A stretch of DNA of 64,000 bases from Thermoproteota archaeon (GTDB taxonomy: Archaea > Korarchaeota > Korarchaeia > Korarchaeales > Korarchaeaceae). This document shows positions 35,384 through 50,606 of this stretch, in pieces. The translations under genes and the position numbers were made by a program. The DNA is taken from contig JALSOH010000004.1 in NCBI GenBank assembly GCA_026986575.1, positions 480,001 to 544,000 of the forward strand. Direction: 5' to 3'. The first letter of the stretch is position 1. Every line of letters starts with the position of its first letter. The notes beneath the pieces were generated by a model, which worked only from the letters and a program-made list of their open reading frames with translations, searched no databases and had not been told where the DNA came from.

Positions 35384-36526
35384 GTGAAGCTCGAACCCTT
35401 CAATCCATGGTGGTACGACGACTCATGGGCTAGGCACGATCCTCATCTAGCTAAACTTTCCAGATCCAAATACAAGTGGAGACCCGATTGGTTAGACGGC
35501 ATCTCCTTGGAGCCCTTCTCCCTTAACTTCGTGCTGGGCCCGAGGCAGGTGGGGAAGACCACCGGACTGAAACTGCTAATAAAGGAGCTCATAGAACTAG
35601 GTAGGGAGCCGACCAAACTTGTCTACGTGAACTGCGATCTGATCGTTGATCTTAAGGAGTTGAGATCTGTCCTCTCCATCCTTCCGTCTAGGGAGAGTCT
35701 GGTAATACTAGATGAGGTCACGGGATTGGAGTACTGGTGGCGTGTGGTAAAGGGGCTCATTGATCAAGGCCTCTTCTCCAAGGGTGTCCTGATAGTGAGC
35801 GGATCCTCCTCCGTCAGGGTTCGTAGATACGCGGAGTCCTTCACGGGCAGGAGGGGGAAGGGCAGGAATGTCCAAGTCCTACCATTAAGCTTCAGGGAGT
35901 TCGTTGGCGTCAGGGGATACGGACTGAAGGAGTTAGAGAGGGCATTTGAAGACTACATCAGGCTGGGAGGTTTCCCCAGGTCCATAAATGAGGACTCAAC
36001 TTTCCTGCTGGAGCTCCCAGAGCAAGTAGATAAGGAATTGGCTAAGGTAGGGAGGAGCGCGAGGATAGCAGGGCAAATTATCCATCAGGTAATAGAGAAA
36101 GGACCCTCGGCCATGAGCTATAATTCGATAGCCAAGGAGATAGGTGTGTCCCATGTAACAGTAAGGGAGTACCTAGAGCTCCTCGAGGACCTCTTTATGG
36201 TGGGTGTGGCCTACTGGAGGCGGGGGAACAGGGTAGATTTCAAGAAAGAGAAGAAAATCTTCTTCAGAGATCCATCCATACCCAGAGCCTTCTATCAGAT
36301 CAGGGGTGAGGTGAAGAGAGAAGCTCTCTACGAGTGGGTGGTTCAGGAACACCTTTACAGGAAGTACGGAGAGATCTGCTACTACAGAGATGGTTATGAG
36401 ATAGATGCAATCTCAGGAGGGTTGAAGGTGGAAGTGAAAGCTGGGAAGAGCCATAGGAGGTATCCTAGGGGAATAATCGTGTTGGAGGCCGAGGACATAC
36501 CCTATTTCCTCTTCAAGATGGCATGA
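35384..36526 (+). CDS. AAA+ ATPase, COG1373/DUF4143-type
   Basis: FNPWW, GPRQVGKTT, ILDEV, SGSSS, PLSFREF, GGFP, FRDP and EIDA..EVK motifs; likely start GTG 35384. Confidence 0.88.
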   Translation: MKLEPFNPWWYDDSWARHDPHLAKLSRSKYKWRPDWLDGISLEPFSLNFVLGPRQVGKTTGLKLLIKELIELGREPTKLVYVNCDLIVDLKELRSVLSILPSRESLVILDEVTGLEYWWRVVKGLIDQGLFSKGVLIVSGSSSVRVRRYAESFTGRRGKGRNVQVLPLSFREFVGVRGYGLKELERAFEDYIRLGGFPRSINEDSTFLLELPEQVDKELAKVGRSARIAGQIIHQVIEKGPSAMSYNSIAKEIGVSHVTVREYLELLEDLFMVGVAYWRRGNRVDFKKEKKIFFRDPSIPRAFYQIRGEVKREALYEWVVQEHLYRKYGEICYYRDGYEIDAISGGLKVEVKAGKSHRRYPRGIIVLEAEDIPYFLFKMA

Positions 36527-36708
36527 GCGAATGTCAGTCCTAAGAACAAGCGATCTCCCCCCCGTCCCCCCGAGGCCTAATTAAATTGAAAACTAGCGAG
36601 TCAGATACGCTTCAAACGCAAATACTCCTATCATTTTCGCGTGATCAATGAAATGGAGCAGTACTGGGATCCATATAATATCATGTAATATAGCAAACTT
36701 TGGAGGGG

Positions 36709-38010
36709 TCATCCTCTCCCTAACACTTTATCCACTTTTATGACGGATCCCTGCTTCAATGCCTCACTAAGTATGCTGTTAAGGTCCTCCCTTAAATCAG
36801 GATCTATCTTGGCGACAAAGGCCCCATTTACCTGAGGTCCCTGCACGAGACCGCAAACATACAGAGTTTCATTCCACATATAGATATCTCCAACAGCATT
36901 GTTCTCTTGCATATTCAAGAAAGTCTCCTCAACTAGCGAGTCCTCTCTTAGCAAATCTAGGAAACCAACCATAGAGTACCAACCAAAGTGATATAATCTA
37001 CCACTAAAGCTCCTCAGCCCACCCAGACATCCAAAACTGGTGGGTAACCCCGCGTATACTGGATTCTTGATTCTAGCGATGACCTTACCGTCCTTATCCG
37101 CGAATACGAGGGAACAATTGAAACTCCACACAGATAACACAATTTTGTCGTCCAGCGTAATAGCGCTAATTCCCCTTCCAACACTTCGGTTGATCAACCC
37201 CTTAGTATACTCTAAGCTACCATTGGAGTAGAACTTGGCCATTTCGATGACTCCGCTCTCGTTGGCGTTTCTTGATGCATCTACATTCCCTAGAGCCCCT
37301 CCTTTCCTTAGATCATACCAAAAGGCGTAAAGGTAATGTCCATCAGTCAATAGAATAGGAGGGCTTCCTTTATACAGATACTTCAGTTTTTCCATGGCAT
37401 CTCGACTCATTTCCGCTACAAAGTTCCTCTCATGGATCTTCCCCTTAATATCTACTCTGGCTAAATAGAGTCTGCTATCAACGAATTCAAGGGCATATAT
37501 CCACCCATCTATCTCAACAGCATCAGTAAAATTACCCGCTAGATTCCATACAGAATTTCCATTCCTATCAATTAGAACTAATTGGCTCGGACCAACCAGA
37601 AGGAACCCTCTATGGACAGGCTTGATACGCTTAGGCGATTCCCAGGGGACTAGCGTTAAATTCTCTACATGCAAGGAGTGATCCAGCGTAGATAAAATTA
37701 GGGTCTTGTTCACTTTGGTAGGGGTCACTAACTCTAAGAAGATTATAAACTTACCATCGCTGACTAAAAGAGTTTTACAATCCAATATCTTCTTTTTCCA
37801 TGTAAAAAAAGTAGCATTAATCTCCTTTCTAGACATATTTTGCATGCTTCGGGTGGTTGAGCCAGTCTGAGCAGAATTAGTCCGAGTTAGAGGTATACTG
37901 CTTGATGTTATTACCCTCTCACCCGGAAACTGAGATAGGAGAACTATGAGTATCAGAAACAATGCCAATGCCATTAGACCCAACGAAAGAGCTAACGGCT
38001 TAACTCTCAT
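36709..38010 (-). CDS. Membrane-anchored extracellular protein, beta-propeller-like
   Basis: N-terminal TM, S/T-rich linker, repeated beta-blade-like units (LIDRNGNSVW, FYSNGSLEY, DKDGKVI), multiple N-x-S/T sequons; AT-rich DNA. Confidence 0.6.
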   Translation of the reverse strand: MRVKPLALSLGLMALALFLILIVLLSQFPGERVITSSSIPLTRTNSAQTGSTTRSMQNMSRKEINATFFTWKKKILDCKTLLVSDGKFIIFLELVTPTKVNKTLILSTLDHSLHVENLTLVPWESPKRIKPVHRGFLLVGPSQLVLIDRNGNSVWNLAGNFTDAVEIDGWIYALEFVDSRLYLARVDIKGKIHERNFVAEMSRDAMEKLKYLYKGSPPILLTDGHYLYAFWYDLRKGGALGNVDASRNANESGVIEMAKFYSNGSLEYTKGLINRSVGRGISAITLDDKIVLSVWSFNCSLVFADKDGKVIARIKNPVYAGLPTSFGCLGGLRSFSGRLYHFGWYSMVGFLDLLREDSLVEETFLNMQENNAVGDIYMWNETLYVCGLVQGPQVNGAFVAKIDPDLREDLNSILSEALKQGSVIKVDKVLGRG

Positions 38011-38145
38011 ATCTATAACCCCATAACTCTCTGAACTTCCCAGAAATGTTATTGAAATACATAATTAATAAATGCAATTTACGCTAATCCTAAAAAAAAG
38101 GACGACTTATATCGTAAAATCTTTATAACAAGCATTCCAGCAAGT

Positions 38146-39105
38146 ATGAATCAAATATTCAACTATAGAGGCGATAATATGATCCATATGAGGCGAGTAA
38201 GTGGAATCTATAAGTACATTGTCGCCACAATCTTGGTTCTCCTAGTGCTCCCTCCAATACTTAGCATAACTGCGCAACCCAGTAACAAAGCTGATCAGGC
38301 GAGCAAGGGTCCTACACCAGAGGAAATGAAGAAAATGGACGAAATACTGAAGAAATTAGAGGAGGAAGACAGGGAGCGACCTCCGATATTCATCCCAGAG
38401 CCCAACGTATATGTGGGTACAGTTCATGAGGATCCTGAAGGGAATATACACTTAGGAAAAGGGAGGAAAATTACCGATGAAAATGGTAACTTCTTAACCT
38501 TGAGTAGCCATTCCACAGGCAAGGAATGTAATGTAGAATCCGATCATTATTGGGACTTTGACGGTAACGATATGTATGTGATAAATGGAAACCATATAGT
38601 ATTCAGAAAGGTAATGTCTGCTAACTTTGCCGGGACGTACTTTTCAGTCTTCGATGGGAAACGCTGCCTCAACTGCGACTCGGGGATACAAACCGTAAGT
38701 GATTACTGGTCCCCTGATACAGTTAAAGAATATGTTGAATCTCACTATCCAGAATATACTTGATTTCATATAAAGTACTTCATAAACTCTAGACTTGATG
38801 ACTACGTGTATAAGAACATAAAATATGTAAATATATACAAGCTCCATGGAGAGCTGTGGAGTGAGGCGAATTACTACAGAAGTGACAACAGATGGTACAA
38901 ATACGGTTATCCAGATATGTGGGGTGGAGGGGCATCGTACATTGTCGGCAAAAGGTTATTCGTCTCTGTAGGTTGCTACTACTACAACGACTTCTGGCCC
39001 TACTACTGGGACTACTATTACAGGAAATTTGGCCACCCATACATAATATATCTCTTCTCAAATTTTGGACACCAGTTCCTTATAAGGTACGTCACTAGAT
39101 GGTAA
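38146..39105 (+). pseudogene. Secreted Tyr/Trp-rich protein interrupted by one in-frame TGA
   Basis: ORFs 38146-38763 and 38806-39105 share a frame and are joined by open sequence (YPEYT*FHIKYFINSRLDDYVYK); signal-peptide-like N-terminus. Confidence 0.6.
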
Positions 39106-39206
39106 TTTTATGAAAGATATCTCTGCCTATCTCTCTTATTTTTTCTGAATATCTCCGGCTCTACTATCATTTAATCTCTCTTAACTCACTAATTGAAGGG
39201 GCGAAG

Positions 39207-39380
39207 ATGGGCTTAGATTCAATCAGGGTAATGGCCCTAATTGATAACACCACGCACTATGAGGTACCTATATTGGCGGAGAATGGAATCTCCCTCCTGC
39301 TGTAGATCCCGGAGTTGGATGTTACCGTGCTCGTTGATACCGATATCACAGGAGAAGCCTTGTTGAACAATGCTGCGCGC
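39207..39380 (+). pseudogene. N-terminal fragment of an MBL-fold hydrolase (COG1237-like)
   Basis: Hand translation MGLDSIRVMALIDN...LAENGISLLL*IPELDVTVLVDTDITGEALLNNA matches the ITVLVDN / AEHGLS / DTG..LL.NA pattern; internal TAG at 39303. Confidence 0.75.
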
Positions 39381-39429
39381 GAATGCAATTCCTCCCAAGA
39401 ATTATAAATTAGTAATTGGTAATTGTACC

Positions 39430-39636
39430 GTGCCAACCACCATTACCATCAGTAGGAGAACGAAGGATCTGCTGGCTAGATTGAAGAGGGATAAGACATG
39501 GGATGAATTCCTTACGGAGCTCGCTCATAACTACAGGAAGACGAAGGCCCGTAAGGCCCTAGAACAGCTGAGGAAGATAGAATTTGACTCTACTTACGAG
39601 GAGGTGAGGCTCAAATTACGATTGATGGAGTCCTGA
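39430..39636 (+). CDS. VapB-like antitoxin
   Basis: TTITISRRTKDLLARLKRDKTWDEFL (RHH-like); overlaps the PIN gene; likely start GTG 39430. Confidence 0.78.
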   Translation: MPTTITISRRTKDLLARLKRDKTWDEFLTELAHNYRKTKARKALEQLRKIEFDSTYEEVRLKLRLMES

Positions 39637-39980
39637 TCGACACGGACATGCTCATCGAGGTCGACAGGGAGAGGGAGGACCTGCCTGATGCTCCATGTTT
39701 CATCTCTGTTGTGAGCTTATACGAGTTCGTGAGAGGCAAGGTGGATCCTTATAGGGCAAAGTTTCTCGTGGAGGAAATTTGCGGCGTGGTGCCCTTGGAT
39801 AACGAGGTGATCTCGAAAGCAGTTGAGATATGGAGAAGTCTCAGAAGTAGTGGGGTCCTTATAGATGACAGGGATCTGCTAATCGGGGCCACGGCAATAG
39901 CCAAGGGGCTGCCCCTGTGGACAGGAAATGCCAGACATTTCGAGAGGCTGGTCAGGTACGGGTTGAGGCTGTGGAGGTAG
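39615..39980 (+). CDS. vapC: VapC PIN-domain toxin
   Basis: VLIDTD (upstream of the ORF-track ATG 39648), SLYE, DLLIGATA and TGNARHF motifs; start placed at ATT 39615 after GGAGGTGA. Confidence 0.85.
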   Translation: MTIDGVLIDTDMLIEVDREREDLPDAPCFISVVSLYEFVRGKVDPYRAKFLVEEICGVVPLDNEVISKAVEIWRSLRSSGVLIDDRDLLIGATAIAKGLPLWTGNARHFERLVRYGLRLWR

Positions 39981-40059
39981 GACCCCGCGCAATGCAGAAC
40001 CTCCCAAGTGAGGGGCTGAACCTCTCATAGGTACCGCCTAAGACCACCTCCTTACAATA
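39744..40059 (+). repeat. Diverged direct repeat, copy 2
   Basis: Homologous to 34985-35304. Confidence 0.85.
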
Positions 40060-46008: not shown

Positions 46009-46881
46009 TTAGATCTCCTTCCTCATCCACTTGTACCTGCTTACCGGCTCGAAGCCAGCGGCCTCGAATGCCGCCCTGTACCTGCACCAAGTCTGCGTAA
46101 CTACCTTGGGCACACCCATTTCATTGGCGAGGGTAACCGCCATCTCAGCAGAGTCAAATATCTGACCGAGACTGGCCCTCTTCGGTCCCCATATCAAGGC
46201 ATAAAGGTGATCATCATCCCTAGTAGGCTGGAACATCGCGAGGATGAGTTGCCACAGTCCCACCCTGACCTTCACGACTCTCGGCGAGGGGAGACCCACA
46301 CTCTCCCTGTCCCACAGTAGCTCCCAAAGGAGGGATGATGGCCTCGTCTGTCCAGCGATCATCTGGGCGGCAGCGGGGAACTCCTCCCTTGTAGCGTTCT
46401 CTAACTTGGGCTGCTCGGGTGCAGGTCTCGCTGGCGCTTCCATGAGCACCTGAGAATCGATCTCCCTGAATCCTAGATTTTCGAAGAAGGGAAGGGCCTC
46501 GGCGGTCGGTATCGTGTCCAAGTGACGCATTCCCATTTCCCTAGCTAGATCCACACACCTCTCAACGAGCTTCCTTCCTACGCCAGTCCTCCTCGCCTCC
46601 TCCTTGACCCAGACCATCTGCAGATATGCGTGCTCTCCTACTGGTGTGAGGAACCTCTCCGGTACGACCTCAGCTTCACCGAGTACCTTTTCATCGGATA
46701 AGGCGACCACTGCCTTGCCACCGGACGAGTAGAGGGCCTCCAAGTACCACCCAAATACTTGGGGATCACCCCAGTACCCGCACTCCTTGATCCGGAGATC
46801 GAAGGTCATATCCTCCCAGTTAGGGCAGTGAATCGAGACGACTTCATCCAACAAATCGTGACTGAGCTCAACTATCTCCAA
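46009..46881 (-). CDS. GNAT family N-acetyltransferase (probably tandem domains)
   Basis: VWVKEEARRTGVGRKLV acetyl-CoA motif and ALPFFENLGF; a second degenerate domain ends in FEAAGF. Confidence 0.82.
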   Translation of the reverse strand: MEIVELSHDLLDEVVSIHCPNWEDMTFDLRIKECGYWGDPQVFGWYLEALYSSGGKAVVALSDEKVLGEAEVVPERFLTPVGEHAYLQMVWVKEEARRTGVGRKLVERCVDLAREMGMRHLDTIPTAEALPFFENLGFREIDSQVLMEAPARPAPEQPKLENATREEFPAAAQMIAGQTRPSSLLWELLWDRESVGLPSPRVVKVRVGLWQLILAMFQPTRDDDHLYALIWGPKRASLGQIFDSAEMAVTLANEMGVPKVVTQTWCRYRAAFEAAGFEPVSRYKWMRKEI

Positions 46882-47642
46882 GAGGGATCCTCCTCCACCA
46901 GCCAGGCGAGCTCCCTGAAGATCTCTCCCGCCGGCCCTCTCAACCTGATGTTCGCTAAGCTACTTAAATTAGTTTCCTCAGGATTCACTTCCACCAGTAT
47001 CTTCCCTTGCCTCGCCGCGTTGATGGGTAACAGGGCTGCGGGCATGACCATACCACTAGTTCCTACGATGAGGATGACTTCTGCCTCAAGGAAGAGCCTC
47101 TCTGCTCTCTCGAACTGGTCCATCGGGACGGGCTCCTCGAACCACACCACATCAGGCCTAAGAAGTCCCCCACACTCTCTACACCTCGGTAGATCCTCTT
47201 CCGGTGTGTTTCCAAATCCTAGATCGTACCGTCTGCCGCATACAGTACACCTAGTCCTCCATATCGAACCGTGAAGCTCAATGACCAGCTTGGAGCCGGC
47301 TCTCTTGTGGAGCCCGTCCACGTTCTGGGTAACCACGCCGATGAGTATACCCTTCCTCTCCCAGTCAGCCATTACCTTGTGGGCCCAAGTTGGCTCGGCC
47401 CTCGCGATTATGGACATCCTCCACTTGTACCACTCCCAGACCCTCTTGGGGTTGGACTCGAACGCCTGGGGTGTAGCCAACTCCTCGGGCCTGTACCTGT
47501 TCCAGAGCCCGTCCTTACCCCTGAAGGTCGGGATGGCTGCCTCAGCTGAGGTCCCTGCACCGGTGAACGCTAGCACCTTTCCGGAGTGCTCCTTGATAAG
47601 GCGGGCCGCTGAAGACAGGTCCTCAGGAGCTACCTCACTCAC
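46872..47642 (-). CDS. cobB: NAD-dependent protein deacylase (Sir2/CobB)
   Basis: TGAGTS, IPTFRG, TQNVDGLH, HGS, CxxC..CxxC, RPDVVWF and GTSG motifs. Confidence 0.93.
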   Translation of the reverse strand: MSEVAPEDLSSAARLIKEHSGKVLAFTGAGTSAEAAIPTFRGKDGLWNRYRPEELATPQAFESNPKRVWEWYKWRMSIIARAEPTWAHKVMADWERKGILIGVVTQNVDGLHKRAGSKLVIELHGSIWRTRCTVCGRRYDLGFGNTPEEDLPRCRECGGLLRPDVVWFEEPVPMDQFERAERLFLEAEVILIVGTSGMVMPAALLPINAARQGKILVEVNPEETNLSSLANIRLRGPAGEIFRELAWLVEEDPSWR

Positions 47643-48945
47643 CTAACCTCACCTCCGGCGGGGAGCTGGGGTACGGTCTCACCTCTGCCTCAAGGGGACA
47701 CCCTCCCCTGCAGACTTGGAGCAGAGGGCAGGAGAGACACACATCCCCCACGAAGCGGAGCTCCCTGATCTTCAGGCACTCATCGTGATACCAGATCCTA
47801 TCCCAAGGATCCCTCAGGATGTGTCCCAGAACCTTGTAATGGCTCTGGCAAGGTATCACGGATCCATCGGGCTCCACCGCTAGGGTTATGCTGCATGCCG
47901 AGCAGAACTTCGGTCCCAGACCCTCGCTCATTGGATCCAGCTCACAGTACCGGGTCACCCCGTACCACCTGAAGTCCAAGTCCAGCTCCGTGGTGAGCTC
48001 CTTAGCCTCCGCCAACACCCCCCTCATCTCATCAAAGGAGGGCTCCAGATCTCTCAGGTCCCTACCCCTCCCACTGTATATCAGCCTGTTCAGCGAGAAT
48101 CCATCAACACCCAGATCCGCGACGAACCGGATCAGCGATTCCACCGTTTTCATGTTCCTCCTCAGGAGGGTCGCATTAACGCTCACGTAGATATTGAACT
48201 TCAGCAGGTTCTTGAGCCCCTCGACCGTCTCCTTCCAGCTCCCCTTCACTTGGGTTATAGAATCGTGAATCTCTGGATCGCTGGACTCCAAGGTCACCTG
48301 AGCGAAATCCAGTCCGGCCTCGACCAATCTCTCAACCAGCTCTCGGGTCAAGAGCCTCCCATTCGTCACTATTCCCGAGACCATCCCGAGCCTCTGAGCT
48401 TCAGCCACCAGCTCCGGGAGGTCTCTCCTGAGGGTGGGCTCTCCACCGGTGAAAGTGACTTGGGGAACCCCCAGCTCGTGGAACTTCCTTATCACGGCCT
48501 TCCACTCATCCGTGTTCAATTCCTCCCGCTCGTCGGGACTGGAGGAGTAGCAATGGATGCAGGCGTTATTGCACCTGTATGTGAGGGCCAAGTCGACCCT
48601 GAAAGGGGCACCAAGGGTTGATGGATCTGGGAAGGCCGGTTTGAACCCCAGATCGGTTACGGGATCCTCGTACCCCTCAATGAATCTCCTGAGCTTGCTA
48701 ATCACCTCCTCATAGTGCCTCCTCACCTCGTCCCTCCTCATGCCCCTGTAAATCCTCTTCAACTCCCGGTAAGCCTCATCCCATCCCTTACCTGAGAGGA
48801 AGGCCTTCGCGAAGACCGCTGCCGTGTAGTTAAGGTAAGCGACCCTCTGAGCATCTACCACGAGGGCGCCCATGGCTAGGGGATCTATGCGGAGCTGGAT
48901 CCTCCTACCATTCAATTTGAATGTCAGGGATTCCCTCTCAATCAA
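47635..48945 (-). CDS. Radical SAM/SPASM protein with N-terminal PqqD/RRE-like domain (PqqE/MftC-like maturase)
   Basis: CNNACIHC, TGGEP and TNG motifs; SPASM C..EPDGSVIPC..CLSC....CRGGC; N-terminal YLNYTA plus helical bundle. TTG start at 48945 overlaps the upstream TGA and follows GGAGGTGG. Confidence 0.9.
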   Translation of the reverse strand: MIERESLTFKLNGRRIQLRIDPLAMGALVVDAQRVAYLNYTAAVFAKAFLSGKGWDEAYRELKRIYRGMRRDEVRRHYEEVISKLRRFIEGYEDPVTDLGFKPAFPDPSTLGAPFRVDLALTYRCNNACIHCYSSSPDEREELNTDEWKAVIRKFHELGVPQVTFTGGEPTLRRDLPELVAEAQRLGMVSGIVTNGRLLTRELVERLVEAGLDFAQVTLESSDPEIHDSITQVKGSWKETVEGLKNLLKFNIYVSVNATLLRRNMKTVESLIRFVADLGVDGFSLNRLIYSGRGRDLRDLEPSFDEMRGVLAEAKELTTELDLDFRWYGVTRYCELDPMSEGLGPKFCSACSITLAVEPDGSVIPCQSHYKVLGHILRDPWDRIWYHDECLKIRELRFVGDVCLSCPLLQVCRGGCPLEAEVRPYPSSPPEVRLGE

Positions 48946-50606
48946 CCAACCCCACCTCCGGCACAGGCACAAGCGCAACTCACACATGCGCAGGCACAAG
49001 CGCAGCTGACGCAGGCGCAGCTGACTGACGCCGTCCTCCTAGCTCGAGGTTTGGGGGGGACGATGACCCTAGCCACCCTGTCGGCGAAATCCTCGATATT
49101 CCTGACGACATTGGAGGAGACCTCCTCGACCGATCTGGCGATGGTATCGGCGGCTTTCTCTATGTCGGGGATGACCGGGACATCCACCTTGCCACCAGGC
49201 GTCCCGGACGTATCGGGAGCTCTGGGCACCCTTGGAGCGGGCGGGATTGAGGTCCATCTACCCCTAGGCCACCATATCCACACATCGTCCAGCGGGTAGG
49301 GATAGGAGGTAACGACTACCTCCCCCTTAGGCCTCCTCAATGCCCTTCTCAGGTTTCTCTCGAAATCAGGATCGGTCAACAGCCATGCCAGATTACTCCT
49401 GACGAGATCGAGCTTCTCATCGAGGGGAGCATCCTCGATCATCTCCCATATCGATCTTACCTTGCTATCGTAGAAGGCGAGGGTCTCCCTCCTTGAGTAC
49501 CCGGATAACTCCCTCTCCACCCTCCTGTGTAAGAGCTTGATTACCTTAACCAAGCAATCTTGGTCTAGAGATCCGCCCTCAGTCAAACAGTCCAAGAACC
49601 TCTTCTCATAGATCCTCAGGTTCCTTCTCGAACCTTCCAGCTTCCTCAATTTGAGCGGATCCAAGCTCTCCACTGCCAAGAACCCTTTCTCCACTAGGCT
49701 GGCTATGAGAACCGCTAAAATTCGCCCGTAACTGAGCTTGGCCCCCTCTAACTTGCGGAGGTAGGCCACTTCCGTTGGAGCCATGTTCTTGTTCGGTCCC
49801 AAACTCTCGGCGAAGATCTCGGGGGCCTGGTAGGGTAGCTTCTCTATCCATGACTTGAATAACTTGACTATGGCCACGATGGAGATTATTACCGCTCCCA
49901 GAAACACGATTCCTATAATGAAGCTGAGATAGTTCGGGATCCCGCCACCCGCAGGTACCACCCTCTCGACGTAGTCCCTCGGAAAGGACACCCCTATCTC
50001 GAACTTGTAGTTAGGGGGAAGGTCCCTCCTCTCCCAGTAGAGGTATATCCTGCCGTCATCCAGCACTTGCAAGTTGTCGTAATCGGGCTGGTTCTTCACC
50101 TCTCCCTTGGAGACCCCAGGAGGTAGTATCACAAAGACTTGGAGCAGCTTGATGGGAGCATTGAACCACGAGGGTGTGAACATGAGGCCTGCATTGCCCG
50201 GGTTGGTCTCATCCTCGTAGATGAAGTCCCTGAGCTCGACCTCCACTACGTAGGTCCTGCTTTCCCCCGGGTCTATAGGCTCGCTGGGTCTCATCTTTAC
50301 CGCGTAATACGAGCCCTCTCTGATCTCCTCAGCATCGATCTCAACGATTCTACCGTCCGGGAAGACCTCCTTAGCCTCTAGCACGCTGAAAGATGGGGAG
50401 GGCATCCCTATCGATACGTACCGGGCTATAGTTCCAGACTTCACCTTTAGAGTGAGGTTGTACCTCAAGTACACCGTTCCCGAACGCTGTATATCGAGGA
50501 TGACCTTTTCCCTCTCTATCTCATACAATATCTGGCTGCTCGTGTTTATTAGAGGAATTAGGAGCGCGGAAATGACAAGAAATAGTAGAATTAGCCTGAA
50601 CCTCAT
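48942..50606 (-). CDS. DUF2207-like membrane protein with Cys-rich C-terminal tail
   Basis: Signal peptide (MRFRLILLFLVISALL), beta-rich ectodomain ending FEIGVSFP, one TM, cytoplasmic region (PTEVAYL, LVEKGFL, YEKRFL), ends SCACVSCACACACVSCACACAGGGVG. Confidence 0.75.
   Translation of the reverse strand: MRFRLILLFLVISALLIPLINTSSQILYEIEREKVILDIQRSGTVYLRYNLTLKVKSGTIARYVSIGMPSPSFSVLEAKEVFPDGRIVEIDAEEIREGSYYAVKMRPSEPIDPGESRTYVVEVELRDFIYEDETNPGNAGLMFTPSWFNAPIKLLQVFVILPPGVSKGEVKNQPDYDNLQVLDDGRIYLYWERRDLPPNYKFEIGVSFPRDYVERVVPAGGGIPNYLSFIIGIVFLGAVIISIVAIVKLFKSWIEKLPYQAPEIFAESLGPNKNMAPTEVAYLRKLEGAKLSYGRILAVLIASLVEKGFLAVESLDPLKLRKLEGSRRNLRIYEKRFLDCLTEGGSLDQDCLVKVIKLLHRRVERELSGYSRRETLAFYDSKVRSIWEMIEDAPLDEKLDLVRSNLAWLLTDPDFERNLRRALRRPKGEVVVTSYPYPLDDVWIWWPRGRWTSIPPAPRVPRAPDTSGTPGGKVDVPVIPDIEKAADTIARSVEEVSSNVVRNIEDFADRVARVIVPPKPRARRTASVSCACVSCACACACVSCACACAGGGVG

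Follow-up and report, generated by a model that had tools for sequence, protein, structure and literature searches.

A Membrane Protein with a Cysteine-Alanine Repeat Tail Is Coupled to a Radical SAM/SPASM Enzyme with an RRE-Like Domain in Bacteria and Archaea: a Candidate Protein Modification System

In a 64,000-nucleotide stretch of DNA from a korarchaeal member of the Thermoproteota (GenBank assembly GCA_026986575.1, contig JALSOH010000004.1, positions 480,001 to 544,000 of the forward strand; the whole stretch is referred to as the window), two genes of the minus strand encode a membrane protein that ends in a run of alternating cysteine and alanine residues (P0001; 48942-50606, translating to 554 amino acids [aa] plus stop) and a radical S-adenosylmethionine (SAM) enzyme with a SPASM domain and an N-terminal domain resembling PqqD, the recognition element (RRE) of peptides that ribosomes make and that are then modified post-translationally (RiPPs) (P0002; 47635-48945, 436 aa plus stop). 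The tail protein and the enzyme are a dedicated coupled pair that is found across many bacteria and archaea. The tail is quite probably the substrate of the enzyme, since their phyletic coupling, a linkage that survives gene rearrangement, the match between enzyme clade and tail type, the RRE architecture, the conservation of the tail and the lack of a competing substrate all point to this relationship.

P0001 begins with MRFRLILLFLVISALL and ends in SVSCACVSCACACACVSCACACAGGGVG, directly followed by the stop codon, with 9 Cys in 19 residues; it carries the only such tail in its genome (1.9 Mb, 99.7% complete). Its TGA stop (48944-48942) overlaps the TTG start of P0002 (48945-48943), the minus strand reading ...ggt tgg ttg att gag..., so that the two genes share 4 bp. 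The starts of P0002 orthologs (MEREF.. or LIEREF..) lie no more than one codon from the position of this TTG, the starts of the extracted homologous genes having been set by a heuristic. A preliminary description of the window had claimed a 554-aa, signal-peptide-bearing protein with a single transmembrane (TM) helix and a Cys-rich end, whose TGA overlaps the TTG of a radical SAM gene; the translation of 48942-50606(-) and an AlphaFold 2 (AF2) model agree with the former, and the minus-strand DNA with the latter.

The coupling of the two genes was evaluated in an even sample of 151 genomes of the Anaerolineae class (that of locus L035), selected for a completeness of ≥90. High-scoring orthologs of P0002 (519 to 680 bits in a profile search) were present in 22 of these genomes, and a DNA pattern coding for CACACAGGG was also present in 22, while the reversed control pattern occurred in 0 of 151. 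The two lists name the same 22 genomes, the remaining 129 possess neither, and discordant genomes number zero. Within the 22 genomes, the distance between tail and enzyme genes is <250 bp in 16 and 3.5 kb in 1, and in 5 they are placed on separate contigs. The same DNA pattern, scanned in one genome per GTDB species, returned at least 120 loci, each taken as an 8-kb segment in which the match is not centred, with 121 matches in 120 loci (L062 holds two). Four or more C-x-C steps were taken to define a genuine tail, which kept 110 matches and set aside 11, three of which (L029, L048 and L055) have an enzyme gene nearby and may be real tails. Among the matches listed, a P0002 homolog shares the locus (≤8 kb) with 92 of the 110 tails, in 87 cases within 400 bp and on the same strand. 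Only two of the 18 listed tails that have no such neighbor are flanked by at least 2 kb on both sides, and each of the six that were traced belongs to a genome with exactly one ortholog, located elsewhere in four genomes, just past the locus edge in L070 and beside a second copy of the tail protein in G042. The pattern that the preliminary description had named as telling against its proposal, namely, Cys-tail homologs occurring mostly without the radical SAM gene, is thus the reverse of what was found, both in the listed loci (92 of 110) and in the Anaerolineae sample (22 of 22 genomes).

Closer to the window, a full-length ortholog of P0002 (≥380 bits) is present in 27 of the 28 relatives that possess a CAC-tail protein, the exception being G028, where the tail gene is situated at a contig end. 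None of the 12 relatives without the tail protein has an ortholog; their best matches score ≤125 bits and, since the alignment begins near residue 107, are without the RRE. In Korarchaeum, the enzyme gene lies directly downstream of the tail gene, overlapping or adjacent, in 19 of the 19 loci with enough flanking sequence, and in other korarchaeal lineages it lies downstream (L021-L023), upstream (L025), divergently oriented at 2.8 kb (L026) or 29.5 kb away (G029). Across 42 loci, the gap between the two genes has a median of 64.5 bp, and no conserved small open reading frame (ORF) was found in these gaps, so the earlier statement that no small precursor ORF lies nearby holds for the space between the genes. 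Gene callers often overlook small precursor genes, and ORFs of <90 aa were not clustered across whole loci, which would allow for a small, unannotated precursor encoded elsewhere as the real substrate, the adjacency of the tail protein being incidental synteny. This explanation is, however, extremely improbable: the coupling persists in both Bacteria and Archaea despite changed gene order, and also where the genes are unlinked, the intergenic gaps leave too little room and contain no conserved small ORF, and the operon junctions in the window overlap by 4 and 8 bp.

The tail is the most conserved part of the protein, holding 11 of the 14 invariant columns in an alignment of 55 sequences whose cross-phylum identity to P0001 is 20 to 34%, and its Ala and Gly positions match its Cys positions in invariance. 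All 53 of 53 whole-protein homologs, with 23 to 91% identity to P0001, carry the CAC tail at their end; the korarchaeal homologs have the same form of tail as the window, and homologs at about 25% identity end in CACACACAGCACACAGGGR. A profile that contained the tail columns, searched against 1.84 billion cluster representatives (50%-identity clusters), retrieved 1640 proteins with E ≤ 0.001, 505 of them with E ≤ 1e-30. Of the best 149 of these 1640 matches, 130 contain CACACAGGG within the C-terminal 40 residues, one-residue variants occur in another 12, and among the other 7, 4 are fragments cut at the C-terminus. Five of the top profile matches (P0056-P0058, P0060 and P0062; 766 to 838 aa) carry about 240 extra N-terminal residues ahead of the family domain. 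A low-complexity artefact in the DNA was considered and rejected, because the synonymous codons of the tail vary between genomes, the number of repeats is constant from phylum to phylum and the reversed control gave 0 matches in 151 genomes.

The listed loci derive from Chloroflexota, Bacillota, Planctomycetota, Acidobacteriota, myxobacteria, Bathyarchaeia, Methanomassiliicoccales, Thermoplasmatota, Heimdallarchaeota and others. The preliminary description had framed the system as archaeal; this did not hold, since most members among the matches listed are bacterial, mainly from Chloroflexota and Bacillota. Of the 110 listed tails, 74 are C-terminal and 36 internal, the latter mostly in Clostridia and other Bacillota, where the motif is usually followed by RAGCS.KDFY and 6 to 40 residues in total (L051 shows only 2, its gene extending past the edge of the locus).

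A second type of tail is paired with a second clade of enzyme. The CAC pattern is absent from 26 Anaerolineae-class genomes with intermediate enzyme scores (323 to 380 bits); five such loci were fetched, and in 4 of the 5 the enzyme gene adjoins that of a 578- to 681-aa membrane protein of the same architecture with a tail built of ACHS/ACVHD units (...ACHSACVHDACHSACHSACVSRF). The korarchaeal genome G022 likewise encodes an (ACHS)n-type tail, with an enzyme at 36% identity, so that this tail type is common to Anaerolineae and a korarchaeote. The sister loci combine the distinct enzyme clade with a small zinc-ribbon membrane protein and with a coiled-coil-like protein of about 390 aa. Against the ACGX model, the sister (group B) enzyme reached 91.7 bits, below the cutoff of 400. 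C-terminal CAC tails, the internal CAC tails of Firmicutes and (ACHS)n tails are each paired with their own enzyme clade: when five tail-type labels were placed on an enzyme tree (FastTree, unrooted, 94 rows, holding 5 of the 20 Korarchaeum-genus loci, identical sequences dropped), 4 changes were needed, which is the minimum possible, compared with a mean of 30.3 for shuffled labels. A repeat type that matches the enzyme clade is what an enzyme-substrate relationship predicts.

The architecture of P0002 is that expected of a peptide-modifying enzyme with its own recognition domain. The three Cys of the CxxxCxxC motif are invariant in 73 orthologs, as are six Cys of the SPASM domain (C348, C366, C403, C406, C412 and C416), with C334 present in at least 90%; PF13186 matches 73 of the 73 orthologs. 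The AF2 model, built with 73 orthologs (mean predicted local distance difference test [pLDDT] score of 88.9), places strands at residues 5-11, 14-20, 26-30 and 34-38 of the N-terminus, followed by helices at 40-50, 55-63 and 71-89. The top fold matches in VIA-align are SkfB (Z 29.1, 349 aligned residues, 24% identity, model residues 15-422) and SuiB (Z 27.5, 375 aligned, residues 8-430), both of which superpose on P0002 through their N-terminal domains, whereas PqqE, anaerobic sulfatase-maturating enzymes (anSMEs) and CteB align only from about residue 110. Pfam PqqD (PF05402) matches 48 of the 73 orthologs, with a best E of 3.9e-9, and the N-terminal domain is, on the evidence of the model, of the PqqD/RRE fold. 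The radical SAM motif, the Cys-rich SPASM domain and the N-terminal resemblance to PqqD/RRE noted in the preliminary description have therefore all been substantiated, by PF04055, PF13186 and Cys conservation for the former two and by the SuiB/SkfB superposition and the PqqD matches of orthologs (not of the window's copy) for the last. A second outcome that the description had named as counting against its proposal, an N-terminal domain other than an RRE, was likewise not borne out. P0002 is not an anSME, as it possesses an RRE and its partner is no sulfatase (no Pfam match). In one ortholog (G024:C30:27358-28596), the match contains one in-frame TGA.

The membrane protein is predicted to carry its tail on the side of the membrane where this enzyme could reach it. 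The AF2 model of P0001, obtained with an alignment of 55 homologs (mean pLDDT 84.4; tail residues 525-554 unmodelled), consists of a hydrophobic N-terminal helix, probably a cleaved signal peptide, a β-sandwich, a single TM helix, a winged-helix and helical domain and a helical pre-tail segment (Table 1). The β-sandwich best matches the luminal domain of ribophorin I/Ost1 (6s7o_E; Z 16.0, 176 aligned residues, root-mean-square deviation 2.7) and, second, the N-terminal domain of M1 aminopeptidases (Z 12 to 14). The domain that follows the TM helix carries the motifs G.KRGLTA.EAA and KMKGFSRKET..YY, conserved in the 55-sequence alignment. Model residues 274-498 weakly resemble GOLPH3/Vps74 (Z 7.9 with 163 aligned and Z 6.8 with 156 aligned), which is under the trust level for helical folds. 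The two helices of the pre-tail segment (residues 481-500 and 504-515) are modelled with pLDDT 83 to 93; the segment is moderately conserved, with P517 nearly invariant, and may represent a leader-like recognition region. Lys/Arg residues follow the TM helix in P0001 and its homologs, and by the positive-inside rule the C-terminal half, including the tail, would face the cytoplasm and lie within reach of an oxygen-sensitive Fe-S enzyme.

This topology also bears on whether the membrane protein might be a giant carrier or leader, from which the tail, once modified, is cleaved to yield a free small RiPP natural product. In RiPP pathways, a C-terminal core is usually modified first and proteolysis comes afterwards, and a cleavage site could lie between the conserved GGG(R) end and the Gly/Ser-rich linker ahead of the tail or beside either of them. 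We nevertheless consider such a release very unlikely, for several reasons: (i) no protease or exporter is conserved beside the pair, with ABC-type ATPases in only 9 of 128 loci; (ii) the tail is predicted to be cytoplasmic; (iii) some 520 upstream residues are conserved as folded domains in 1640 cluster representatives, which is far beyond the needs of a leader; and (iv) the Firmicutes motif is internal, with further residues after it.

P0001 itself has no Pfam match at E ≤ 0.1 and no NCBIfam match. Its Atlas neighbors are labelled "putative DUF2207", and sub-threshold matches to PF09972, PF20990 and TIGR04222 occur in its relatives; among 10 relatives, 2 gave sub-threshold DUF2207 matches (17.5 and 13.3 bits), with none at the curated cutoff, and P0001 lies below the Pfam gathering score for DUF2207 (PF09972/PF20990). 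Based on the labels of its neighbors and these sub-threshold matches, P0001 is likely to be a divergent, distantly related DUF2207-like protein.

Taken together, these data suggest the following course of events: (i) the membrane protein would insert with its β-sandwich outside and its C-terminal half, with the (Cys-Ala)n-Gly-Gly-Gly tail, in the cytoplasm; (ii) the RRE domain of P0002 would dock on the conserved pre-tail segment, either on the helical hairpin, to which the preliminary description had pointed, or, equally possible given that RREs usually bind an extended strand, on a short conserved stretch with a Pro (P517) that immediately precedes the Cys core; (iii) the disordered tail would thread between the radical SAM cluster and two SPASM auxiliary clusters; (iv) a 5'-deoxyadenosyl radical would attack the invariant Ala or Gly residues and remove hydrogen from their carbons, and the Cys sulfurs would be joined to neighboring or cross-strand Ala/Gly carbons in several thioether crosslinks of the sactionine or ranthionine type; and (v) the modified product would stay attached to the membrane protein, presumably without release. 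Judged from sequence, modification of the tail by P0002 is likely, and the preliminary idea of the tail as a candidate substrate gains support from the coupling and from the RRE fold. Thioether formation, proposed by analogy, is a reasonable guess at the chemistry that we place slightly short of probable.

On the other hand, several points weigh against a tail modified by P0002: (i) the co-occurrence carries no formal probability, because related genomes are non-independent samples; (ii) in the genome-scan set, the invariance of the last nine tail positions is imposed by the search pattern, and independent support for these positions comes only from the whole-protein homologs and the best profile matches; (iii) the window's own P0002 has no Pfam PqqD match at E ≤ 1; (iv) P0002 lies far below every curated NCBIfam cutoff, and homology does not, therefore, indicate its chemistry (146 bits against a cutoff of 381 for PqqE, 117.5 against 265 for MftC, 114.9 against 300 for SkfB, 83 against 850 for AlbA and 89.5 against 625 for StsB; ScmE/F and GeoRSP scores are likewise below the equivalog cutoffs, and ACGX is not among the 25 families listed); (v) the CX2CX5CX3C motif of P0002 is without the usual last Cys after it, so that in one auxiliary cluster a ligand position may be left open or be taken by something other than Cys; and (vi) CxC runs are typical of metal binding, and the tail could bind metal or Fe-S unmodified. 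A co-fold of the enzyme with residues 470-554 of P0001, three 4Fe-4S clusters and SAM scored 0.02 against a mark of 0.32 and is counted neither for nor against the proposal.

The metal-binding character of CxC runs leads to the most serious competing explanation, according to which the tail is a metal- or Fe-S-binding or redox site that undergoes no covalent modification, and the radical SAM enzyme is its obligate partner in some other way, for example, by being recruited to the membrane for a lipid or small molecule or by having its clusters supplied or held by the tail. CxC runs are classic thiolate-cluster, metal-binding ligands, and on a reading of the sequence a two-residue turn at the AG or VS spacer would set Cys facing Cys across a hairpin; the lipid-modifying GDGT-MAS is among the fold matches of P0002 (Z 21), and co-occurrence alone fits a substrate and a partner alike. 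Several features, however, count against such a partner. P0002 carries a peptide-recognition RRE domain, and an RRE-like N-terminus is also kept in a second P0002 paralog of Chloroflexi, even though the CxxxCxxC and SPASM Cys are lost in 20 of the 27 lower-identity paralogs. The spacer residues of metal sites normally vary, whereas the Ala and Gly of the tail are as invariant as its Cys, which is unusual for a pure metal site, and the sequence type of the tail covaries with the enzyme clade. We therefore regard an unmodified metal or redox site as unlikely and retain modification of the tail by P0002 as the preferred interpretation.

The genes that accompany the pair were surveyed by clustering the ORFs of 128 loci (L021-L148). 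The gene clusters seen in more than 10 of them number only four: besides the tail protein and the enzyme, they comprise a methyltransferase and a small membrane protein with a zinc ribbon. The zinc-ribbon protein was found in 31 loci from both Bacteria and Archaea; it has 115 to 135 aa, two TM helices and a C..C/C..C zinc ribbon, and in the seven copies inspected its C-terminus is EEPKW or the variants EAPKW and EEPTW. Its gene is located upstream of the tail gene (directly so in L032 and L067, which were inspected). In some Firmicutes tail proteins, the zinc ribbon is internal instead, which may reflect a fusion. The class I SAM methyltransferase occurs in 27 loci, downstream of the enzyme gene or genes where inspected. 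The Cys-less Chloroflexi paralog looks like a pseudo-enzyme, judging by its sequence, and in 6 Chloroflexi loci a conserved protein of about 113 aa (EWIKEFPAAVTVCD...) is encoded between two enzyme paralogs (e.g., L075:5674-6015(+) and L095:4315-4656(-)). Pfam and NCBIfam cutoffs of equivalog or family models were reached by neither type of tail protein, nor by the Cys-less paralog, the zinc-ribbon protein or the methyltransferase. In the genome of the window, the best match to the zinc-ribbon protein had an E of 0.07, with no match to a regular expression for its C-terminus; only generic matches to the methyltransferase were obtained (1.9e-6 and 4.8e-4); and no second enzyme containing the N-terminal domain was detected, the Cys-less paralog not having been searched for as such. 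As the accessory genes were not found with the queries used, Korarchaeum apparently possesses only the two-gene core.

In the window, P0002 is followed by genes for a Sir2-family protein and a GNAT acetyltransferase (Table 1). The Sir2 start follows the enzyme gene in 18 Korarchaeum loci, the GNAT gene follows directly in G003, and both neighbors are lineage-specific. On the 5' side of P0001 lies a gene for a cupin-type glucose-6-phosphate isomerase in the opposite orientation. No RNA data set was listed for 47635-50606. Elsewhere in the window, positions 36001-40000 have a G+C content of 0.43 to 0.45, compared with 0.50 to 0.57 in the rest (0.49 in the last 2 kb).

Table 1. Features of the tail protein, the enzyme and associated genes (positions refer to the window unless a locus is named)
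Feature	Position	Strand	Evidence or remark
P0001 signal peptide or hydrophobic helix, residues 1-20	50547..50606	-	AF2 helix 2-20; homologs with A-x-A-Q-like ends
P0001 β-sandwich, residues 27-209, predicted extracytoplasmic	49980..50528	-	AF2, pLDDT mostly >90
P0001 single TM helix, residues 226-255	49842..49931	-	AF2; hydrophobic core, then KLFKSWIEK
P0001 winged-helix and helical domain, residues 277-422, predicted cytoplasmic	49341..49778	-	AF2 secondary structure
P0001 pre-tail segment, residues 481-526	49029..49166	-	helical hairpin 481-515 plus Pro-containing linker
P0001 Cys-Ala repeat tail SVSCACVSCACACACVSCACACAGGGVG, residues 527-554	48945..49028	-	proposed substrate core
P0002 PqqD/RRE-like N-terminal domain, residues 1-100	48646..48945	-	AF2 fold; SuiB/SkfB superposition; PF05402 in orthologs
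P0002 radical SAM core, residues 113-330	47956..48609	-	PF04055 at residues 121-275, E 6e-32
P0002 CxxxCxxC, C125/C129/C132	48550-48573	-	invariant in 73 orthologs
P0002 SPASM domain, residues 334-420	47686..47946	-	seven conserved Cys; PF13186 at 348-407, E 2e-6
Sir2-family gene	46872-47642	-	PF02146, E 2.5e-53; downstream of P0002, 8-bp overlap
GNAT acetyltransferase gene	46009-46881	-	after Sir2 gene, 10-bp overlap
Zinc-ribbon membrane protein, examples	L032:428-829, L067:2376-2747, L078:146-493	+	
SAM methyltransferase, examples	L032:5292-6044, L135:2027-2794	+	best NCBIfam DVU_1556 family, 59.6 bits vs cutoff 155
Cys-less P0002 paralog, examples	L035:3413-4519, L104:4289-5398	+	1-4 Cys total
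Sister tail proteins	L158:7341-9383, L159:7308-9053, L160:7338-9110	-	tails ...ACHSACVHDACHSACHSACVSRF
Sister tail proteins	L161:3997-5829, L028:4290-6068	+	tails ...ACHSACVHDACHSACHSACVSRF

As for function, the Cys-Ala tail, multiply crosslinked and kept at the cytoplasmic end of the DUF2207-like protein, could serve as a cofactor derived from the protein itself, a sulfur-rich ladder for metal binding or for the relay of electrons or signals, and together with the sister (ACHS)n system it could represent an ancient, previously unrecognized class of radical SAM modification of membrane proteins, present in Bacteria and in Archaea, including Asgard and Korarchaeota, with the zinc-ribbon membrane protein, the Cys-less pseudo-enzyme and the methyltransferase as accessories. 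We put this forward as a speculation that is rather doubtful in its entirety.

To our knowledge, RRE-dependent radical SAM/SPASM maturases have been studied almost entirely as makers of small secreted peptides. If the proposed modification is true, this chemistry would here act on a conserved membrane protein of 550 aa, at its cytoplasmic tail, in a range of organisms that extends from gut Clostridia, Chloroflexota and Planctomycetota to relatives of methanogens, Bathyarchaeia, Heimdallarchaeota and Korarchaeota. It would also provide a functional handle on DUF2207-like proteins and explain RRE-fused radical SAM enzymes that peptide-centered genome mining would call precursor-less, while the sister (ACHS)n system is a natural counterpart for comparing how substrate repeats and enzyme clades coevolve. 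The prediction made here is well defined and can be tested at little cost.

Several known systems share individual features with the one described here. DUF2207/TIGR04222-type proteins have the architecture of P0001, i.e., a signal peptide, an outer β domain, a TM helix, a cytoplasmic helical domain and a low-complexity C-terminus; we know of no report of canonical DUF2207 proteins paired with a radical SAM enzyme, and the titles and opening parts of abstracts covered in the literature on DUF2207 contain none concerning radical SAM. SkfB and SuiB, the best whole-length structural matches to P0002, N-terminal domain included, form a Cys-Met thioether and a Lys-Trp carbon-carbon bond, respectively, in small secreted peptides, unlike a membrane-protein tail. 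QhpD, acting on QhpC, and the anSMEs also belong to the radical SAM/SPASM enzymes and alter Cys residues in a protein on which the modification is retained, as opposed to a released peptide; neither target is known to be a membrane-protein tail with a repeat. The anSMEs, which are among the fold matches of P0002 (Z 24.8, aligned only from about model residue 112), differ further in that they have no RRE and that their substrates are soluble or exported enzymes with one target residue, in the sulfatase motif C/S-x-P/A-x-R. No description of the tail-enzyme system was found in the literature searched, and the RRE-fused radical SAM dataset of PMC10288494 may contain members of this enzyme family. 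The closest likeness is to StsB and StsA of Streptomyces sparsogenes, for which the parts of PMC10288494 covered here describe an RRE-dependent radical SAM/SPASM enzyme and a core of alternating Cys followed by Gly (CxCxCx4GxGxG), in which three Cys-to-Gly α-carbon thioethers (sactionines) are formed in a hairpin arrangement. According to the same parts of that report, StsA is a short precursor peptide and the RRE, StsC, is a separate protein, whereas here the RRE is fused, the core is placed on the tail of a membrane protein of about 550 aa, and in the motif (CA)n is directly followed by GGG with no loop. By analogy, and as far as those parts go, StsB is the best precedent for the proposed chemistry, and the actual chemistry could differ. 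Systems in which a radical SAM/SPASM maturase carries a fused RRE and acts on a Cys-rich substrate are already known; what is new is the format of the proposed substrate, a retained tail on a conserved membrane protein, and the breadth of the system across both prokaryotic domains.

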